Assembly (NCBI GenBank): GCA_028280165.1
Contig: JANQMI010000214.1
Span: 132 to 64,131, forward strand
Direction: 5' to 3'
DNA from: Oceanicaulis sp.
Lineage (GTDB): Bacteria; Pseudomonadota; Alphaproteobacteria; Caulobacterales; Maricaulaceae
Length of the DNA stretch: 64,000 nt
Every line of letters starts with the position of its first letter. The first letter of the stretch is position 1. This document shows, piece after piece, positions 48,356-56,127 of the stretch. The position numbers and the translations under genes were made by a program. The notes beneath the pieces were generated by a model. The model made no database searches. It had not been told where the DNA came from and saw nothing but the letters and a program-made list of their open reading frames with translations.

Positions 48356-49021
48356 ATGAAGCGTCAACGTGGACGCGGGCGTAAGCCCGGCAACAACAAT
48401 AACCGTAATTTCGAGAGCAATGGCCCGGATGTGAAAATTCGTGGTAATGCCTCTCATATCTACGACAAATACATGCAGCTGGCGCGCGACGCGACATCGT
48501 CTGGCGATCGCGTGATGGCTGAAAACTATTATCAGCATGCCGAACACTATTTGCGCATCGTGCAAGCCAATCAGGCGGCCCAGCAACAAAAGCGCGAAGA
48601 GCAGGACGGCGACGATAATCGCGGGCAAAATCGGCGTCAGGACCAGGCTGAACGTTCAGATGAGCCCGGTTCGGCTGAAGCTGGCGAGGGCGGTGAAGGC
48701 GAAGGCCGCAGCCGCAACCGTCGGGGGCGGGGCCGCCGTCGCGAAGAAGAGGCACCCCAGCCGGTGGTCAGCGATGATCCGCTTCAGGTCGTCAATCCGG
48801 ACGCCAGAGATGACGCGCCAGTGGCCGCTGAAGGTGAGGCCGAGGCACCGCGCCGAGGCCGTGGTCGCCGCCGCAAGGACGAGGACGGGGAGGCCGAGGC
48901 GAATGGCGAAGCTAAACCGCGTCGCCGCACCCGCCGCGCGCCTGATCCAGATGCTGAAGCCGCGCTCAATGCTGTGGACGGCGAAGGCGGTGCGCCCTCA
49001 GAAGATGGCGCGGCGGCTTAA
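48356..49021 (+). CDS. DUF4167 domain-containing protein
   Basis: FESNGPDVKIRGNA...YDKYMQLARDA...GDRVMAENYYQHAEHY; Arg/Glu-rich low-complexity tail; usual position after prfA-prmC. Confidence 0.88.
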   Translation: MKRQRGRGRKPGNNNNRNFESNGPDVKIRGNASHIYDKYMQLARDATSSGDRVMAENYYQHAEHYLRIVQANQAAQQQKREEQDGDDNRGQNRRQDQAERSDEPGSAEAGEGGEGEGRSRNRRGRGRRREEEAPQPVVSDDPLQVVNPDARDDAPVAAEGEAEAPRRGRGRRRKDEDGEAEANGEAKPRRRTRRAPDPDAEAALNAVDGEGGAPSEDGAAA

Positions 49022-50472: not shown

Positions 50473-50892
50473 CTAATGCGCCGCGCGACGCATTTGGCCT
50501 GCGATTTCATCCATTTCGGCCTGCTCGGCTGCGCGCACTGAGTCTTGAATACGCGCCAGGCGGCGCTCTTCAAGCAGCTCGTACTTCTTCAGCTCCGCAA
50601 AGGCATCTTCCAATCGCACACGAAGGGCATCGGCTTGCCCTGCCACTTCATCAAGCGAGGCGCGCAGGTTTTCTTTGCGCTGGATCACCGACCGGGCATA
50701 GCTGCCATAGGCCAGATAGCCATCTTTATCCTCGGCCGCGACGGCCTGTTCTTCAGGCACGCTTTGTTCAAGCCGCGCAATTTGGCCGCCGATCGAAGCG
50801 CGGGCGCGCTCAATCTCAGCCATCTGTTTTTGAAGTTCTTCGACCTTGAACCGCGCAAGTCGGATCAAGGGCGCATGAGACCTGTTAGCCAT
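50473..50892 (-). CDS. fliJ: Flagellar export protein FliJ
   Basis: Coiled-coil protein directly after fliI; AFAELKKYELLEERR...EQAEMDE. Confidence 0.88.
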   Translation of the reverse strand: MANRSHAPLIRLARFKVEELQKQMAEIERARASIGGQIARLEQSVPEEQAVAAEDKDGYLAYGSYARSVIQRKENLRASLDEVAGQADALRVRLEDAFAELKKYELLEERRLARIQDSVRAAEQAEMDEIAGQMRRAAH

Positions 50893-50904: not shown

Positions 50905-52218
50905 TCACTCTCCACCCAAAATTCCAGCCAGGTCTGCGAAGCTCTGCTCGATTGAGCCGGCATCGTCTTTTCCCTGACCTAGGAATTGTTCCAGCGGCTC
51001 ATTGACCGCTATCGCCCGGTCCACCTCCGGGTTTGTCCCCTGGGCATAAGCACCCAGGCGGATCAGTTCCTCCATATCGCCGTAGGTGGCGAGGAGGGCG
51101 CGCGCCTGCTTGGCCAAAGGCACCTCTTCGGGTGCGTAAACCTCTGGCGCAGTGCGCGAAATTGATTTCAAAACGTCGATTGCGGGGAAGCGACCTCGCT
51201 CGGCGATGGCGCGGCTCATCACCACATGTCCATCCAAGATACCGCGCACAGCATCCGCAATCGGTTCATTATGGTCGTCGCCGTCAACTAAGACGGTGAA
51301 CAAGCCGGTGATTGAGCCGCAGCCTTCCGGTCCGGGCCCTGCGCGCTCTAGAAGCGCAGGCAATTCAGCAAAGACAGAGGGCGTATAGCCGCGCGTGGTT
51401 GGCGGTTCGCCGGCGGCCAGACCAATCTCGCGCTGAGCCAGCGCAAAGCGTGTGACCGAATCCATCAGACACAGAACATTCAAGCCCTGATCGCGGAAAT
51501 ACTCTGCCACAGTCAGCGTGGCGTAAGCGGCGCGGCGACGCGCCAGCGCCGGCGTATCACTGGTCTCGGTGATGACCACCGAGCGCGCACGACCATCCGC
51601 GCCCAGCGTGTCTTCGACAAATTCGCGTGCCTCACGTCCGCGTTCGCCAATCAGGCCAATGACGATGATATCGGCTTGGGCCCCGCGGGCGAGCATCGAC
51701 ATCAGGACCGATTTGCCCACGCCCGAGCCGGCAAAAATGCCCAGGCGCTGGCCTCGCCGCATAGGTGCGAAGACATTCAGAGCCTTGACGCCGAGGTCCA
51801 TGCGTTCACCCAAGCGCTGGCGGGAATGGGCGCAGGGCGCGCGGCCTTTCAGCGGGTAGGTCTGTTCGCCTTCTGGCAAAGCCCCACCGCCATCGCGGGG
51901 GCGGGCAAAGCTGTCCATGACCCGACCGAGCCAGGCGTGGCAGGGGCGCAAGACCGAGCCTTCTGGATCAATGTGGGCTTTGGCACCCGGGCGGACGCCC
52001 GAGAGATCGCCATAGGCCATCATCAGTGCGGTATCTCCGCGAAAGCCGACGATTTCCAGATCGGATGCGTCAGACCCTGCCGAAAGGCGGGCACTTGCGC
52101 CAAGCGTCAACGCCGATTTCGGGCCCTGAGCTTCAACGAGCAGGCCGTTAATCGCGCTAATGCGCCCCGTATAGCTGAGGGCTGGCGTTGCCGAGACCCG
52201 TTCAATCAGCCTGTCCAC
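50905..52218 (-). CDS. fliI: Flagellar protein export ATPase FliI
   Basis: [46 protein letters not shown]; GTG start chosen at 52218. Confidence 0.95.
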
Positions 52219-52303
52219 CGCAATTCTCGCGTTGCTACGGCGTCTTTTTGCGCCGTGTTGAGGCGCGTTATGCGCCAAGAGAATCACACAGTAACCGAAC
52301 GCG

Positions 52304-52319
52304 GTTGAGACCCGGTAAA
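52304..52319 (-). promoter_or_regulatory. CtrA-box-like site upstream of fliI
   Basis: Minus strand TTTA-ccgggtc-TCAAC against TTAA-N7-TTAAC (two mismatches). Confidence 0.4.
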
Positions 52320-52607
52320 CGCGGTGAAATTACCCTACCTGGCAGTCAGATTTATGGACCTGACGCCTTAATTTTGGCAGCCAGCTGTGGCCAAGCCCTG
52401 GTTAATCGCCTATTTCAAACCGGTAGCCCCGCTCCGCTGCTGACCCGGTCGGACCGCTCGAGGCCACACCGACGCGTGCCCCGCTTTATGGGCATCTGAA
52501 TCGATAGCGGACAGACGCGCGCATTCCTGCTGCTAAGCGTGTGTTCGAACTGAATTAACACTGGCGCCGACATTGCCGCCGACCGATGAGGCCGACGAGA
52601 AACCGCT

Positions 52608-54053
52608 ATGCCTTTTGATCATAAGCCCGAACCGATTGCCATTTCTCGCCCGAAGGAAAAAGCGCGAACCCGTCGCCACAAAGACAACCTGTACGGTCAG
52701 ATTTCCGAGACCAAGTTCAATCGCTATGTCGTCCACGACATCAAGCGCTATCGCAAATATGTCGAAGAAGGTGGAGCCGCCGTCTATTCTCAAGACGAGC
52801 TGGACGCGTTGGAGGCCTCTGGGATTTCTGATCGTCTGCCACCGCGTGCAACCGGCTACTATCTAGACTTGGCCAAGCGTTCGACGGCTGTTCGCAACCT
52901 GATCAAGGCGCGCCCAGAGGAGATGGAAGACCTCTCCGGTGAAAAGGACCCGTCTAACCAGCTGCGCTACAGCCCAGTTCCGGGCCTACTGCACAAATAT
53001 GAGCTTTGCTTGATTTATGTGGTGCGCACTTGCTCCAGCTGGTGCCGCTATTGCTATCGCTCCGATTTCCTGACCGGCAAGACGGAGAAGGACACCGCCT
53101 CTATCCACGAGATCACTGACTATATCCAAAGCCACAACGCTAAAGTGGGAGCCGGTGAGATCACAGATAAGCCGCGCATTCGCGAAGCGCTATTGTCCGG
53201 CGGTGATCCGATGGTGCTCTCAAACCGCAATCTGTTTGATTATCTCAACGCGCTGGCCGAAGCCGGTCTGGAGATCATCCGGATTGGGACCAAGGAAATG
53301 GCCTTTTTCCCGGAACGCTTCGACGACAACTTCTTTGAGATGCTCGACCTGTTCCATGAACTACACCCGCACGTGCTGGTGGCCTTCATGGTGCATTTCA
53401 CCCATCCAGACGAGGTCTTGCACGTGACCGAGGGCGGCGAGTGGGTGCGCGACGAGCATGGCCGCTTTTTGCGCAATCGATTGGTCGAAAGCGCTGCACA
53501 GCGCCTGCGCTCGCGAGCCTTCGTGACGCTGGAAAACCAGACCCCGATCATCGATTCCGTCAATGACAATGCCGACGTCCTGCGCATCCTGCAGCAAGAG
53601 CTGAAACGCATGGGCGTGAATAATCATTATTATTTCCAGTGCCGTGAGATCGAGGGCTTCCGCGCCTTCGCCGTTCCGGTGGAGACCGCCTGGAAAATCC
53701 ACGCCGACAGCCAGCATGGCCTGTCCGGGATTGAGCGCTCGCGCTTCGCCTTGTCGACTGAGGCCGGCAAGATGGAATTGGTCAGCGTAATCGAGGGCGA
53801 TGAGCGTTTGGCCTCGATCGGTGGACCGTTGGGCGAAGCTTTGGCCGACGGACTGGTGATTTTCCGCCTGCACCGAACGCCATATGAGAACCGCCAGAGT
53901 GACCTGGTGATTGCCCGCCGCAATCCGGATGCGCTTTGGATCACCGGTTATGAAGATCGCATCCTCTATGATGGTCGTCGCGAGGACGCCCAGGACAAGT
54001 TCGGGCCGCTACTGGCGGCGCTGGGACCGGCGTTGCTCAACGCGGCGGAGTAA
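52608..54053 (+). CDS. KamA-family radical SAM/PLP aminomutase-like protein
   Basis: CSSWCRYCYR (CxxxCxxC), LLSGGDP, RIGTK, HFTHPDE, ENQTP, YYFQC, EAGK. Confidence 0.85.
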   Translation: MPFDHKPEPIAISRPKEKARTRRHKDNLYGQISETKFNRYVVHDIKRYRKYVEEGGAAVYSQDELDALEASGISDRLPPRATGYYLDLAKRSTAVRNLIKARPEEMEDLSGEKDPSNQLRYSPVPGLLHKYELCLIYVVRTCSSWCRYCYRSDFLTGKTEKDTASIHEITDYIQSHNAKVGAGEITDKPRIREALLSGGDPMVLSNRNLFDYLNALAEAGLEIIRIGTKEMAFFPERFDDNFFEMLDLFHELHPHVLVAFMVHFTHPDEVLHVTEGGEWVRDEHGRFLRNRLVESAAQRLRSRAFVTLENQTPIIDSVNDNADVLRILQQELKRMGVNNHYYFQCREIEGFRAFAVPVETAWKIHADSQHGLSGIERSRFALSTEAGKMELVSVIEGDERLASIGGPLGEALADGLVIFRLHRTPYENRQSDLVIARRNPDALWITGYEDRILYDGRREDAQDKFGPLLAALGPALLNAAE

Positions 54054-54136: not shown

Positions 54137-54370
54137 GAATCTGGGGATAAGTCAGGCGTCAATCCACAGCCTGTTTCTCGCCGAATGCATTTATTAATTT
54201 CGATGCAGTTTTGTTAACCCTCTGAGATTCAAGCCTCACAAGTGATTCTTCGTCCGCACGGACTCGATTCCACATGTGGAGTCAAACCCTCGTTAACCTC
54301 TCAGTTACGATTGTCGCCACACAGTGCGAATAAGGTTAACGCTAGGTGCAATCGAGGAGATGAACGATTC
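54137..54370 (+). promoter_or_regulatory. ctrA promoter region: GANTC (CcrM) cluster and GTTAAC half-sites
   Basis: GANTC at 54137, 54226, 54244, 54261, 54266, 54279, 54366; GTTAAC at 54213, 54292, 54335. Confidence 0.75.
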
Positions 54371-54401
54371 GTCTCACCGAACGCCTTGGAAGGGGGAACC
54401 G

Positions 54402-55097
54402 ATGCGGGTTCTGTTGATCGAAGACGATCGCGCGACAGCGCAGGGCATCGAGCTGATGCTCAAGTCCGAAGGCTTTAACGTCTACGTCACCGACTATGGT
54501 GAAGAAGGCGTCGATCTCGGCAAGCTCTATGACTACGACATCATCCTATTGGACCTGAACCTGCCGGATATGCCGGGCTTTGACGTGCTCAAGACCCTGC
54601 GTGTGGCCAAGGTCGATACGCCGATCCTGATCCTGTCAGGCAATGCCGACATCGATAACAAGGTTCGCGGTCTGGGCTCCGGCGCTGATGATTACATGAC
54701 CAAGCCCTTCCACAAGGAAGAGCTGATCGCACGCATCCACGCTGTGGTGCGCCGCTCCAAAGGTCACAGCCAGTCCATCATCAAGACCGGCGACATCGCG
54801 GTGAATCTCGACGCCAAGACCGTCGAAGTGAATTCCCAGCGTGTGCATCTGACTGGCAAGGAATACCAGATGCTGGAGCTGCTCTCGCTGCGCAAGGGCA
54901 CCACGCTGACCAAAGAAATGTTCCTCAACCACCTTTATGGCGGCATGGACGAGCCGGAGCTGAAGATTATCGACGTCTTCATCTGTAAGCTCCGCAAAAA
55001 GCTTTCTGCAGCCACCAATGGTGACAACCATATTGAAACCGTCTGGGGCCGCGGCTACGTGCTGCGCGATCCGGTTGAAGAGCAGAAGGCGTCCTAA
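54402..55097 (+). CDS. ctrA: Cell cycle master response regulator CtrA
   Basis: MRVLLIEDD...[25 protein letters not shown]...[24 protein letters not shown]...[11 protein letters not shown]. Confidence 0.98.
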
Positions 55098-55158: not shown

Positions 55159-55317
55159 GTTTGCGAATCTTGACGGGGCGAGAGGTGAGGGGCATGACCC
55201 TTTCGTTCCTAAGGAGGGCCCTGACGATGAAGCAGACTCGCTAGACCCATGCCGCGGCCGGTTTCGGCCTTTTGGTCCGCATGCCATGCGGACGCTGTCT
55301 AGATGCAGGATAGCTTC

Positions 55318-56127
55318 ATGAAATCACTGCAATCGAAAATCGCCCTTGTCACCGGTGCGGGGAGGGGGATTGGCGCAGCCATCGCCCGGGCCTTCGTTGA
55401 CGAGGGCGCGTTCGTTTTTGTGACCGACATCGACGCGAAGGGGGCCGAGATTGTGGCGAAGGATCTTGGCGACAGGGCCGAAGCGTTGACGCTGGATGTT
55501 CGAGATTCGGCCGCCTGGGCCAACGCCGAAGCCCTTGTTCGCGAACGTTTCGGCGGGTTGGACATTCTGGTCAATAATGCTGGAATTACAGGGTTTTTGG
55601 AAACGCCAGGCCCTCACGATCCGGAGCATTTCGATCTTGAAAGCTGGCGGACGGTGCAGGCGGTCAATGTGGAGGGCACGGCGCTGGGCTGTCAGTCGGC
55701 CATCCGCCTGATGAAGCACCGCCAGGCTGCGGCAATTATCAATCTGTCTTCGCGCTCTGGAGTCGTTGGGATCCCTGCGGCAGCGGCCTATGCAGCTTCG
55801 AAGGCGGCCATCCTCAATCACACGCGAAGCGTCGCGCTATATTGCGCCGAACAGGGCTATCCCATTCGCTGCAACGCCATTTTGCCCGCCGCCATTATGA
55901 CACCGATGTGGGACGGTATGCTGGGGACCCGTGAAGCGCGCAAAGCGGCCATCGCCGGTGTTGAAGCAGGCATTCCCATGGGCCGGTTTGGTCGTGCTGA
56001 CGAAGTGGCTGATGTCGCGGTTTTCCTGGCGTGCGAAAAGTCCAGCTATATGACTGGCGGCGACATTCATTTGGATGGCGGCATTCTCGCCGGGGCTCAG
56101 GCGCGCCCGGAACGTGCAGAAAACTGA
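55318..56127 (+). CDS. SDR family oxidoreductase
   Basis: VTGAGRGIG, NNAG, NLSS, YAASK, RCNAILP. Confidence 0.9.
   Translation: MKSLQSKIALVTGAGRGIGAAIARAFVDEGAFVFVTDIDAKGAEIVAKDLGDRAEALTLDVRDSAAWANAEALVRERFGGLDILVNNAGITGFLETPGPHDPEHFDLESWRTVQAVNVEGTALGCQSAIRLMKHRQAAAIINLSSRSGVVGIPAAAAYAASKAAILNHTRSVALYCAEQGYPIRCNAILPAAIMTPMWDGMLGTREARKAAIAGVEAGIPMGRFGRADEVADVAVFLACEKSSYMTGGDIHLDGGILAGAQARPERAEN

Follow-up and report, generated by a model that had tools for sequence, protein, structure and literature searches.

A divergent KamA-family aminomutase beside ctrA in Oceanicaulis as a candidate glutamate 2,3-aminomutase

The window analyzed here is a 64,000-nucleotide stretch of an Oceanicaulis sp. 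genome (GenBank assembly GCA_028280165.1, contig JANQMI010000214.1, positions 132 to 64,131). Between fliI and ctrA, it carries a gene for a protein (P0001) that is a genuine radical S-adenosylmethionine (SAM)/pyridoxal 5'-phosphate (PLP) enzyme of the KamA family. A sequence-only reading of the same DNA had described it as an aminomutase with a substrate other than lysine, possibly an acidic one. With moderate confidence, we propose that P0001 is a functional PLP- and [4Fe-4S]/SAM-dependent glutamate/beta-glutamate 2,3-aminomutase; we infer the substrate, direction, and role from sequence comparison and gene context. The gene and its diagnostic codons are as follows.

52608 to 54053, plus strand: KamA-family radical SAM/PLP aminomutase, subfamily A (P0001), 481 amino acids, from the open reading frame (ORF) and its translation
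53031 to 53054, plus strand: codons of C142-S-S-W-C146-R-Y-C149, the [4Fe-4S] cluster triad, invariant and aligned to CSMYCRHC of lysine 2,3-aminomutase (LAM)
53199 to 53207, plus strand: codons of G198-G199-D200, the SGGD SAM-binding motif, invariant and aligned to LLSGGD of LAM
53643 to 53645, plus strand: codon of R346, at the position of LAM Asp293 in HMMER alignments, invariant in subfamilies A and B
53754 to 53771, plus strand: codons of S383-T-E-A-G-K388, the subfamily A signature STExGK in the signature table, with G387 and K388 invariant

The cluster triad has the CxxxCxxC spacing expected of the KamA family (C142-x3-C146-x2-C149; CSSWCRYC). It was invariant across 40 diverse homologues, as were R151 (which we take to be the equivalent of LAM R134, the alpha-carboxylate ligand), G198-G199-D200, H263/H266, N310-Q311, Y341, R346, and G387-K388. 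K388 of the TEAGK stretch is the candidate PLP lysine, matched to LAM K337 by manual alignment only; the triad and this lysine had both been spotted in the sequence-only reading. The only related solved structure was Clostridium subterminale LAM (2A5H), found at E values of 4e-21 (single-sequence search) and 4e-36 (family profile). An AlphaFold2 model of P0001 built on the 40 homologues (mean predicted local distance difference test [pLDDT] score of 86.7, predicted template modeling [pTM] score of 0.87) matched 2A5H in Foldseek with an E value of 6e-18, template modeling (TM) scores of 0.58/0.68, and 25% identity across some 394 aligned columns. The next matches were generic radical SAM enzymes at E values of about 1e-4, and the fold is thus LAM-like.

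Profile models placed the protein well outside the named members of the family. Pfam returned nothing above threshold (a Radical_SAM match was subthreshold), and the KamA family model TIGR00238 gave 114.6 bits against a cutoff of 199.2. All NCBIfam equivalogs scored 103 to 109 bits against cutoffs of 369 to 650: arginine 2,3-aminomutase (TIGR04468) 108.6 against 600, glutamate 2,3-aminomutase (TIGR04368) 104.9 against 650, lysine 2,3-aminomutase (TIGR03820) 103 against 525, and EpmB (TIGR03821) 103 against 369. None of ten classical KamA outgroups passed an equivalog cutoff in NCBIfam either. The ratio of nonsynonymous to synonymous substitution rates (dN/dS) of the gene against eight orthologues was 0.05 to 0.19. 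By these low values, the gene is selectively maintained, functional, and under purifying selection in Maricaulaceae.

P0001 shares with LAM the fold, the CxxxCxxC, SGGD, NQ, and HxxHP motifs, the Arg after the third Cys, and, by manual alignment, the GK lysine; presumably, it shares the radical/PLP 1,2-amino shift too. It differs in scoring below the KamA cutoff, in a basic N-terminal addition of about 75 residues, and in an added and different C-terminal segment; the LAM C terminus (beyond residue 320 or so, with the zinc-site cysteines) lay outside every alignment with P0001. The two enzymes also differ in the substrate pocket. In LAM, Asp293 and Asp330 bind the epsilon-ammonium group of lysine. 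HMMER alignments to 2A5H, with the single sequence and with the family profile, both set YIYQCD293 opposite YYFQCR346, and this Arg is invariant in the whole clade described below. The earlier observation that Asp293 is replaced by Arg therefore held under alignment by program, which did not restore the Asp. Because the Asp293 position is taken by an invariant Arg346, the substrate is expected to have an anionic group at its distal end, and lysine is very unlikely as the substrate. The second replacement that had been claimed, of Asp330 by Ser, stood only in the manual alignment: the HMMER alignments end at LAM residue 312 to 320, short of Asp330 and K337. By eye, TSGYAVPTFVVD330APGGGGK337 aligns with LSGIERSRFALS383TEAGK388 if a 2-residue deletion is allowed in the Gly-rich loop (shorter by that much in P0001), and Ser383 is a plausible equivalent of Asp330.

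A 5.8-billion-protein collection held more than 1,300 relatives of P0001. About 50 clusters (at 50% identity) were closer than an E value of 1e-30, and classical KamA enzymes ranked only after them; the nearest relatives were from Oceanicaulis, at up to 92% identity. The sequence-only reading had proposed a phylogeny within the KamA family, and our maximum-likelihood tree separated the clade from six classical KamA sequences with a Shimodaira-Hasegawa-like approximate likelihood ratio test (SH-aLRT) support of 100. The same tree divided it into subfamilies A (support of 96) and B (support of 99). Subfamily A, with the signature CYR[SL] ... FQCREI ... [LM]S[TS]ExGK, comprises this gene, all Maricaulaceae, metagenome-assembled genomes (MAGs) labeled "Rickettsiales," Burkholderiales, a Chloroflexia MAG, and Marinamargulisbacteria. 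P0001 matches that signature and sits in clade A, where Maricaulaceae are nested beside "Rickettsiales" MAG sequences linked to aminotransferase and DUF849 genes. Subfamily B (CYRE ... FCGRDI ... ITHYKGK) comprises Planctomycetota, Acidimicrobiia, Sneathiella, and several gammaproteobacteria. A and B share Arg346, and the second-site signatures set them apart. By these comparisons, the clade is a divergent, uncharacterized sister of classical KamA. We found no paper on this subfamily or on a route that joins an aminomutase, a transaminase, and a cleavage enzyme for beta-keto acids (BKACE).

To survey gene context, we fetched 80 genome loci, called their ORFs, and clustered these by BLASTP. Among the 23 subfamily A loci outside the Maricaulaceae, 17 had a partner gene within 6 kb and 6 had none, and some A genes were solitary among housekeeping genes. 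The partners were a class III aminotransferase (8 loci), a DUF849 protein of the BKACE family (7 loci), and a class I aminotransferase (7 loci); no thiolase or coenzyme A (CoA)-transferase was seen near the surveyed A loci. In two clusters (L026 and L027), a YdfG-like short-chain dehydrogenase/reductase (SDR) joins the class III aminotransferase and the DUF849 protein, with a DASS-type dicarboxylate/sulfate symporter alongside; this SDR scored 327 bits against a cutoff of 411 for 3-hydroxy acid/malonate-semialdehyde reductase. Elsewhere, in Burkholderiales, the Chloroflexia MAG, and some alphaproteobacterial MAGs, a class I/II aminotransferase replaces the class III enzyme and precedes, often overlapping, the aminomutase (L039, L046, L047, L054, L056, L076, and L082). 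A LysR regulator lies downstream of the aminomutase in L039, L046, and L047.

The A-linked class III aminotransferase passed NF005685 (766 bits; cutoff of 485). A-linked aminotransferases were 57 to 60% identical to an aminotransferase of Sinorhizobium meliloti and 25 to 28% identical to those linked to subfamily B. The S. meliloti gene adjoins the only DUF849 gene of its 1.64-Mb replicon. At that locus (CP050561.1, 440093 to 443275; L103:4661-7843), the class III aminotransferase and an RpiR regulator are divergent from the DUF849 gene, with no aminomutase. The pair adjoins hydroxyproline catabolic genes and is a candidate module for the utilization of a beta-amino acid, perhaps beta-glutamate. 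From its distribution, the aminotransferase-DUF849 pair is a module in its own right, in front of which the aminomutase appears to have been added in some lineages. The pair alone, as in S. meliloti, may serve beta-glutamate utilization.

The DUF849 partner offers a further indication of the substrate. The A-linked proteins keep both zinc histidines (HLHIRD) and the zinc glutamate, and they carry APNGA[RK]K for BKACE ITGxxxT, TSE for STGG, and GFENN for G[FL]ED; the residue equivalent to Kce Glu14 is Lys or Arg. These proteins scored 115 to 138 bits on the Kce model (cutoff of 382) and 84 to 106 bits on the 3-oxoadipate model (cutoff of 350). A published screen of the family defines group G6, labeled "not BKACE, presenting decarboxylation activity," by the residues N21, F18, I14, E6, R2, and R17 (PMC4922564). 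Its sole substrate in that screen was beta-ketoglutarate, in 16 cases by decarboxylation, with no case for beta-ketoadipate, and among the species listed for it are S. meliloti, Sulfitobacter, Vibrio, and Cupriavidus (PMC4922564). The same genera were prominent among the plasmid matches of the A-linked DUF849 proteins. We read the active-site positions in sequence order for mapping to G6: the Arg two residues after the conserved Gly corresponds to R2, the Glu of TSE to E6, and the Asn of GFENN to N21. The same mapping makes the Ser of ITGS in a subfamily B-linked BKACE (locus L080) S1, which marks the anionic group G4. This agrees with an independent assignment, because the L080 protein passes the model for 3-oxoadipate:acetyl-CoA acetyltransferase (NF053568; 488 bits against 350). 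On these residues, the A-linked DUF849 proteins probably belong to G6.

Subfamily B has downstream genes of a different kind. Its 33 loci held a class III aminotransferase at 15, 3-oxoacid CoA-transferase A/B at 11, and a thiolase at 4. The CoA-transferases are of the pcaI/scoA and pcaJ/scoB families, and the best NCBIfam matches of the thiolase were all 3-oxoadipyl-CoA thiolase (PcaF-like; 574 bits against a cutoff of 597). A compact operon in L037, L043, L044, L045, L052, L064, L067, L079, and L081 (e.g., L043:7953-12505) has a regulator (RpiR or LysR) and then, in order, the aminomutase, CoA-transferase A, CoA-transferase B, and the class III aminotransferase; the PcaF-like thiolase joins it in Phycisphaerae. 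In L080, the aminomutase is followed by the aminotransferase and then by a 3-oxoadipate-type BKACE. Because these two independent downstream modules point to 3-oxoadipate, they also point to 2-aminoadipate as the substrate of B. Subfamily B is thus a putative 2-aminoadipate aminomutase, and its operon seems to encode an undescribed path that leads from 2-aminoadipate to 3-oxoadipate. Since B is tied to 3-oxoadipate enzymes, the whole clade appears to handle acidic amino acids. At one further B locus, in a gammaproteobacterial MAG (L036:9905-11098), a Ser/Thr kinase-PilZ fusion lies directly downstream of the aminomutase and is probably unrelated.

We favor glutamate/beta-glutamate for subfamily A because of four features: the invariant Arg, the tie of subfamily B to a C6 dicarboxylic amino acid, the partner transaminase, and the G6-type DUF849, a type that removes CO2 from the C5 beta-keto dicarboxylate. 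An acidic substrate, as suggested earlier, remains the best inference, and the aminotransferase and DUF849 neighbors in subfamily A relatives lend it independent support. By analogy with LAM, the amino acid would form an external aldimine with PLP, displacing K388. A 5'-deoxyadenosyl radical made at the C142/C146/C149 cluster would take the C3 hydrogen, and the amino group would shift from C2 to C3 via an azacyclopropylcarbinyl radical. In the relatives, the class III aminotransferase could turn beta-glutamate into 3-oxoglutarate, which the G6-type DUF849 protein would convert to acetoacetate and CO2, completing a three-step catabolic route. In Oceanicaulis and other Maricaulaceae, the lone aminomutase would either draw on the glutamate pool to produce beta-glutamate or, in a single step, recover glutamate from scavenged beta-glutamate. 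More tentatively, and with the balance of our judgment somewhat against it, subfamily A as a whole could be a second, non-orthologous glutamate 2,3-aminomutase with an Arg-based pocket, used by aerobes, that heads an undescribed route from glutamate to acetoacetate and CO2.

Set against known systems, P0001 belongs to the same superfamily as the Clostridioides difficile-type glutamate 2,3-aminomutase Eam (TIGR04368) and probably catalyzes the same interconversion of L-glutamate and beta-glutamate, but it is non-orthologous (105 bits against 650). Its pocket would have Arg/Ser instead of the Lys/Asn reported for Eam. Subfamily A further differs in occurring in aerobic Alphaproteobacteria, Burkholderiales, and others and in having catabolic partners rather than osmolyte or polyketide synthesis. 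Subfamily B shares with A the clade, the invariant Arg346, and the logic of aminomutase, class III aminotransferase, and beta-keto acid enzyme; it differs in FCGRDI/THYKGK, in its aminotransferase subfamily, and in downstream enzymes specific to 3-oxoadipate. Lysine fermentation (KamA, KamDE, Kdd, and Kce) likewise has an aminomutase and then a DUF849/BKACE enzyme that acts on a beta-keto acid. The A clusters, in contrast, have neither a 5,6-aminomutase nor a 3,5-diaminohexanoate dehydrogenase, a transaminase would make the beta-keto group, and the A-linked DUF849 is of a non-Kce type. Beta-glutamate is an osmolyte known mainly from methanogens (PMC1224877). The idea, raised in the sequence-only reading, that it is made here as a marine osmolyte is weakened because subfamily A also occurs in MAGs with names suggestive of nonmarine sources and its partnered contexts are catabolic.

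Several points weigh against glutamate as the substrate. The canonical glutamate 2,3-aminomutase reportedly has Lys/Asn at the two pocket positions (Ruzicka and Frey are said to have described this in 2007), compared with Arg/Ser here, and the score on its own model is low. It is not obvious why aerobes would break down glutamate with an oxygen-sensitive radical enzyme. The assignment to G6 compares three signature residues with a published list, and S. meliloti Q92WR4, which is listed in G6, is only possibly the DUF849 protein examined here. The correspondence of Asp330 and Ser383 comes from alignment by eye. The YdfG-like SDR of L026 and L027 fits the malonate-semialdehyde/beta-alanine node as well (PMC11961710). 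Finally, the Maricaulaceae themselves lack both partners, and the context evidence is transferred from proteins that are 61 to 65% identical.

This last point was borne out at the loci and in the genomes. None of 22 Maricaulaceae loci had a partner gene. Five of eight Maricaulaceae genomes had a best match to the A-type aminotransferase that was 37 to 38% identical in a 410- to 418-amino-acid frame (perhaps ArgD), and the other three had no match at an E value of 1e-30 or lower. P0001 matched only itself in its own genome at an E value of 1e-40 or lower. Two candidates for hidden partners in that genome were rejected: a DUF849 gene (C183:12510-13367), which is 25 to 28% identical, lies in an unrelated context, and lacks APNGARK/GFENN, and a class III aminotransferase fragment (C151), which is 36 to 40% identical and also in an unrelated context. 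The former is the only DUF849/BKACE gene of the genome and is not of the aminomutase-linked type; it lies between ORFs judged by eye to be acyl-CoA-synthetase-like and biotin-carboxylase-like (C183:10655-14703), the latter of which reaches the contig end. An SDR in the window (55303 to 56127) was likewise discarded as a pathway partner: it is PRK07069-like, differs from the YdfG-like SDR of the relatives, and had been grouped with it only by loose single-linkage clustering.

The rival readings tested (ALTERNATIVES) were beta-alanine supply, elongation factor P (EF-P) beta-lysylation, lysine, 2-aminoadipate, and the malonate-semialdehyde node. The one that survives best, although we consider it unlikely, is that P0001 is a 2-aminoadipate 2,3-aminomutase like subfamily B, with 3-aminoadipate passing to 3-oxoadipate and the beta-ketoadipate steps. 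The Arg at the Asp293 position is indeed shared with B, whose clusters hold the pcaI/pcaJ-family CoA-transferases, the PcaF-like thiolase, and the 3-oxoadipate:acetyl-CoA acetyltransferase, and the Oceanicaulis genome itself carries ScoAB/PcaIJ-family genes (C215:53764-55824). The second-site signatures nonetheless differ (STExGK/CRE in A and THYKGK/GRD in B), and the partner aminotransferases of A and B share just the 25 to 28% identity given above. The low score of the A-linked DUF849 on the 3-oxoadipate model and the lack of thiolase and CoA-transferase genes near the surveyed A loci also speak against 2-aminoadipate, as does the absence of beta-ketoadipate activity in G6 (PMC4922564).

Decidedly unlikely is a small or neutral substrate at the beta-alanine/malonate-semialdehyde node (e.g., alanine to beta-alanine), with Arg346 and Glu385 merely closing the pocket. 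The gene content of the L026 and L027 clusters would suit such a role, many BKACEs take malonate semialdehyde in vitro (PMC11961710), and panB or panC lies within a few kilobases of the gene in L001 and L003. Alanine, however, is trivially catabolized by transamination, the invariant Arg is more simply explained as the ligand of an anionic group, and the YdfG-like SDR is confined to one small clade. Nor is an extra source of beta-alanine needed, since PanD is encoded in the Oceanicaulis genome and in 16 of 19 genomes that carry subfamily A. We rejected a role in beta-alanine supply for pantothenate on this distribution of panD and that of panC, which occurs in 18 of the 19 (near full length in 14).

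The third rival ties the enzyme to its neighbors, through modification of flagellar or cell cycle proteins or coregulation with ctrA. We confirmed the earlier placement of the gene between fliI and ctrA, with fliJ and fliI on the minus strand, then the gene, then ctrA.

50473 to 50892, minus strand: fliJ (Pfam FliJ), a neighbor only
50905 to 52287, minus strand: fliI, flagellar type III ATPase (Pfam ATP-synt_ab and T3SS_ATPase_C), a neighbor only
52288 to 52607, no strand: fliI-aminomutase intergenic region (divergent promoters), with no Rfam, CtrA-box, or sigma-70 consensus match
54399 to 55097, plus strand: ctrA, OmpR-type response regulator (Pfam Response_reg and Trans_reg_C), a neighbor only

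The order of fliJ-fliI, aminomutase, and ctrA is kept in all gene-carrying Maricaulaceae, which favors a link to the neighbors, as might the basic N-terminal and the C-terminal segments that LAM lacks. The synteny survey that the sequence-only reading had proposed speaks otherwise. In relatives without the aminomutase, fliI or a fliJ-like gene directly adjoins ctrA, and two congeneric genomes have 1,934 bp (with the gene) and 390 bp between well-aligned ctrA and fliI flanks. Among the sampled genomes, only 3 of 151 in the order and 3 of 23 in the family carry the gene, although ctrA and fliI/fliJ are widespread: ctrA was present in 6 of 6 family genomes checked, and fliI and/or fliJ lay beside it at 5 of 5 loci lacking the aminomutase. 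Outside the Maricaulaceae, no flagellar genes or ctrA occurred near the aminomutase at the surveyed loci, and the response regulators near it in two "Rickettsiales" loci (L001 and L003) are just 32 to 34% identical to CtrA (ctrA orthologues are 85 to 99% identical across the family). The upstream region (52288 to 52607) had no Rfam match (no riboswitch or structured RNA), no CtrA-box-like site at one mismatch or fewer, and no sigma-70 consensus promoter.

Because the gene marks an indel at an ancestrally adjacent junction, is sparsely distributed, and has no such neighbors elsewhere, its position carries no functional information. On these comparisons, the fliI-ctrA position is the result of an insertion or deletion without functional meaning, a functional link to fliI or ctrA was rejected, and, with EpmA absent as well, the suggested role in flagellar or protein modification did not hold. 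We give such a lineage-specific role little credence. A foreign base composition was also sought, and the GC content of the gene (0.574) was undistinctive beside that of ctrA (0.564) and the genome (0.609).

The weakest rival, lysine 2,3-aminomutase activity that yields beta-lysine as an osmolyte or for EF-P, has in its favor that some source annotations (JGI) read "lysine 2,3-aminomutase" and that LAM is the closest solved structure, but it is barely credible: an Arg at the Asp293 position would repel the epsilon-ammonium group of lysine, and the scores on the lysine and EpmB models fall far below their cutoffs, so that the earlier claim of a non-lysine substrate is borne out. EpmA/GenX was not found in the genome (best match of 25.6 bits against a cutoff of 286.9), so that an EpmB-like role in EF-P modification is not supported. 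The sequence-only reading had listed epmA, efp, and ablB as missing nearby; the profile search upheld this for epmA, and for the rest, no ablB-like acetyltransferase was among the annotated neighbors, ablB and efp not having been specifically scanned for.

Other features of the locus stand apart from the aminomutase. Further neighbors encode an SDR, a tetratricopeptide repeat (TPR) protein, and an amidohydrolase. The longest ctrA ORF begins with GTG at 54324, and orthologues align from MRVLLIEDD at 54399, probably the actual start. A TTAA-N7-TTAA-like site with one mismatch (TCAAACCCTCGTTAA; 54282 to 54296) precedes the start of ctrA by about 100 bp. CtrA autoregulates its own gene, and the site fits this, although such sites were no commoner in the window than expected by chance. 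A DUF4167 protein (48356 to 49021), whose C-terminal half is long, highly charged, and of low complexity (Arg/Asp/Glu rich), is conserved at this position in other Oceanicaulis loci (cluster c42).

As an isolated accessory copy, the gene makes for a modest finding within this window. Members of the KamA family are usually all annotated as "lysine 2,3-aminomutase," a label that is almost certainly wrong for this clade, which spans more than 1,300 proteins in at least six phyla and whose two subfamilies have contexts that point to different acidic substrates. If the glutamate/beta-glutamate reading is true, a beta-glutamate source or sink in aerobic marine and freshwater bacteria would gain a gene, and BKACE group G6 and its neighboring aminotransferase would gain a physiological role. 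The clade would also offer a second structural way for a radical aminomutase to accommodate an acidic side chain, a feature of use for beta-amino acid biocatalysis.

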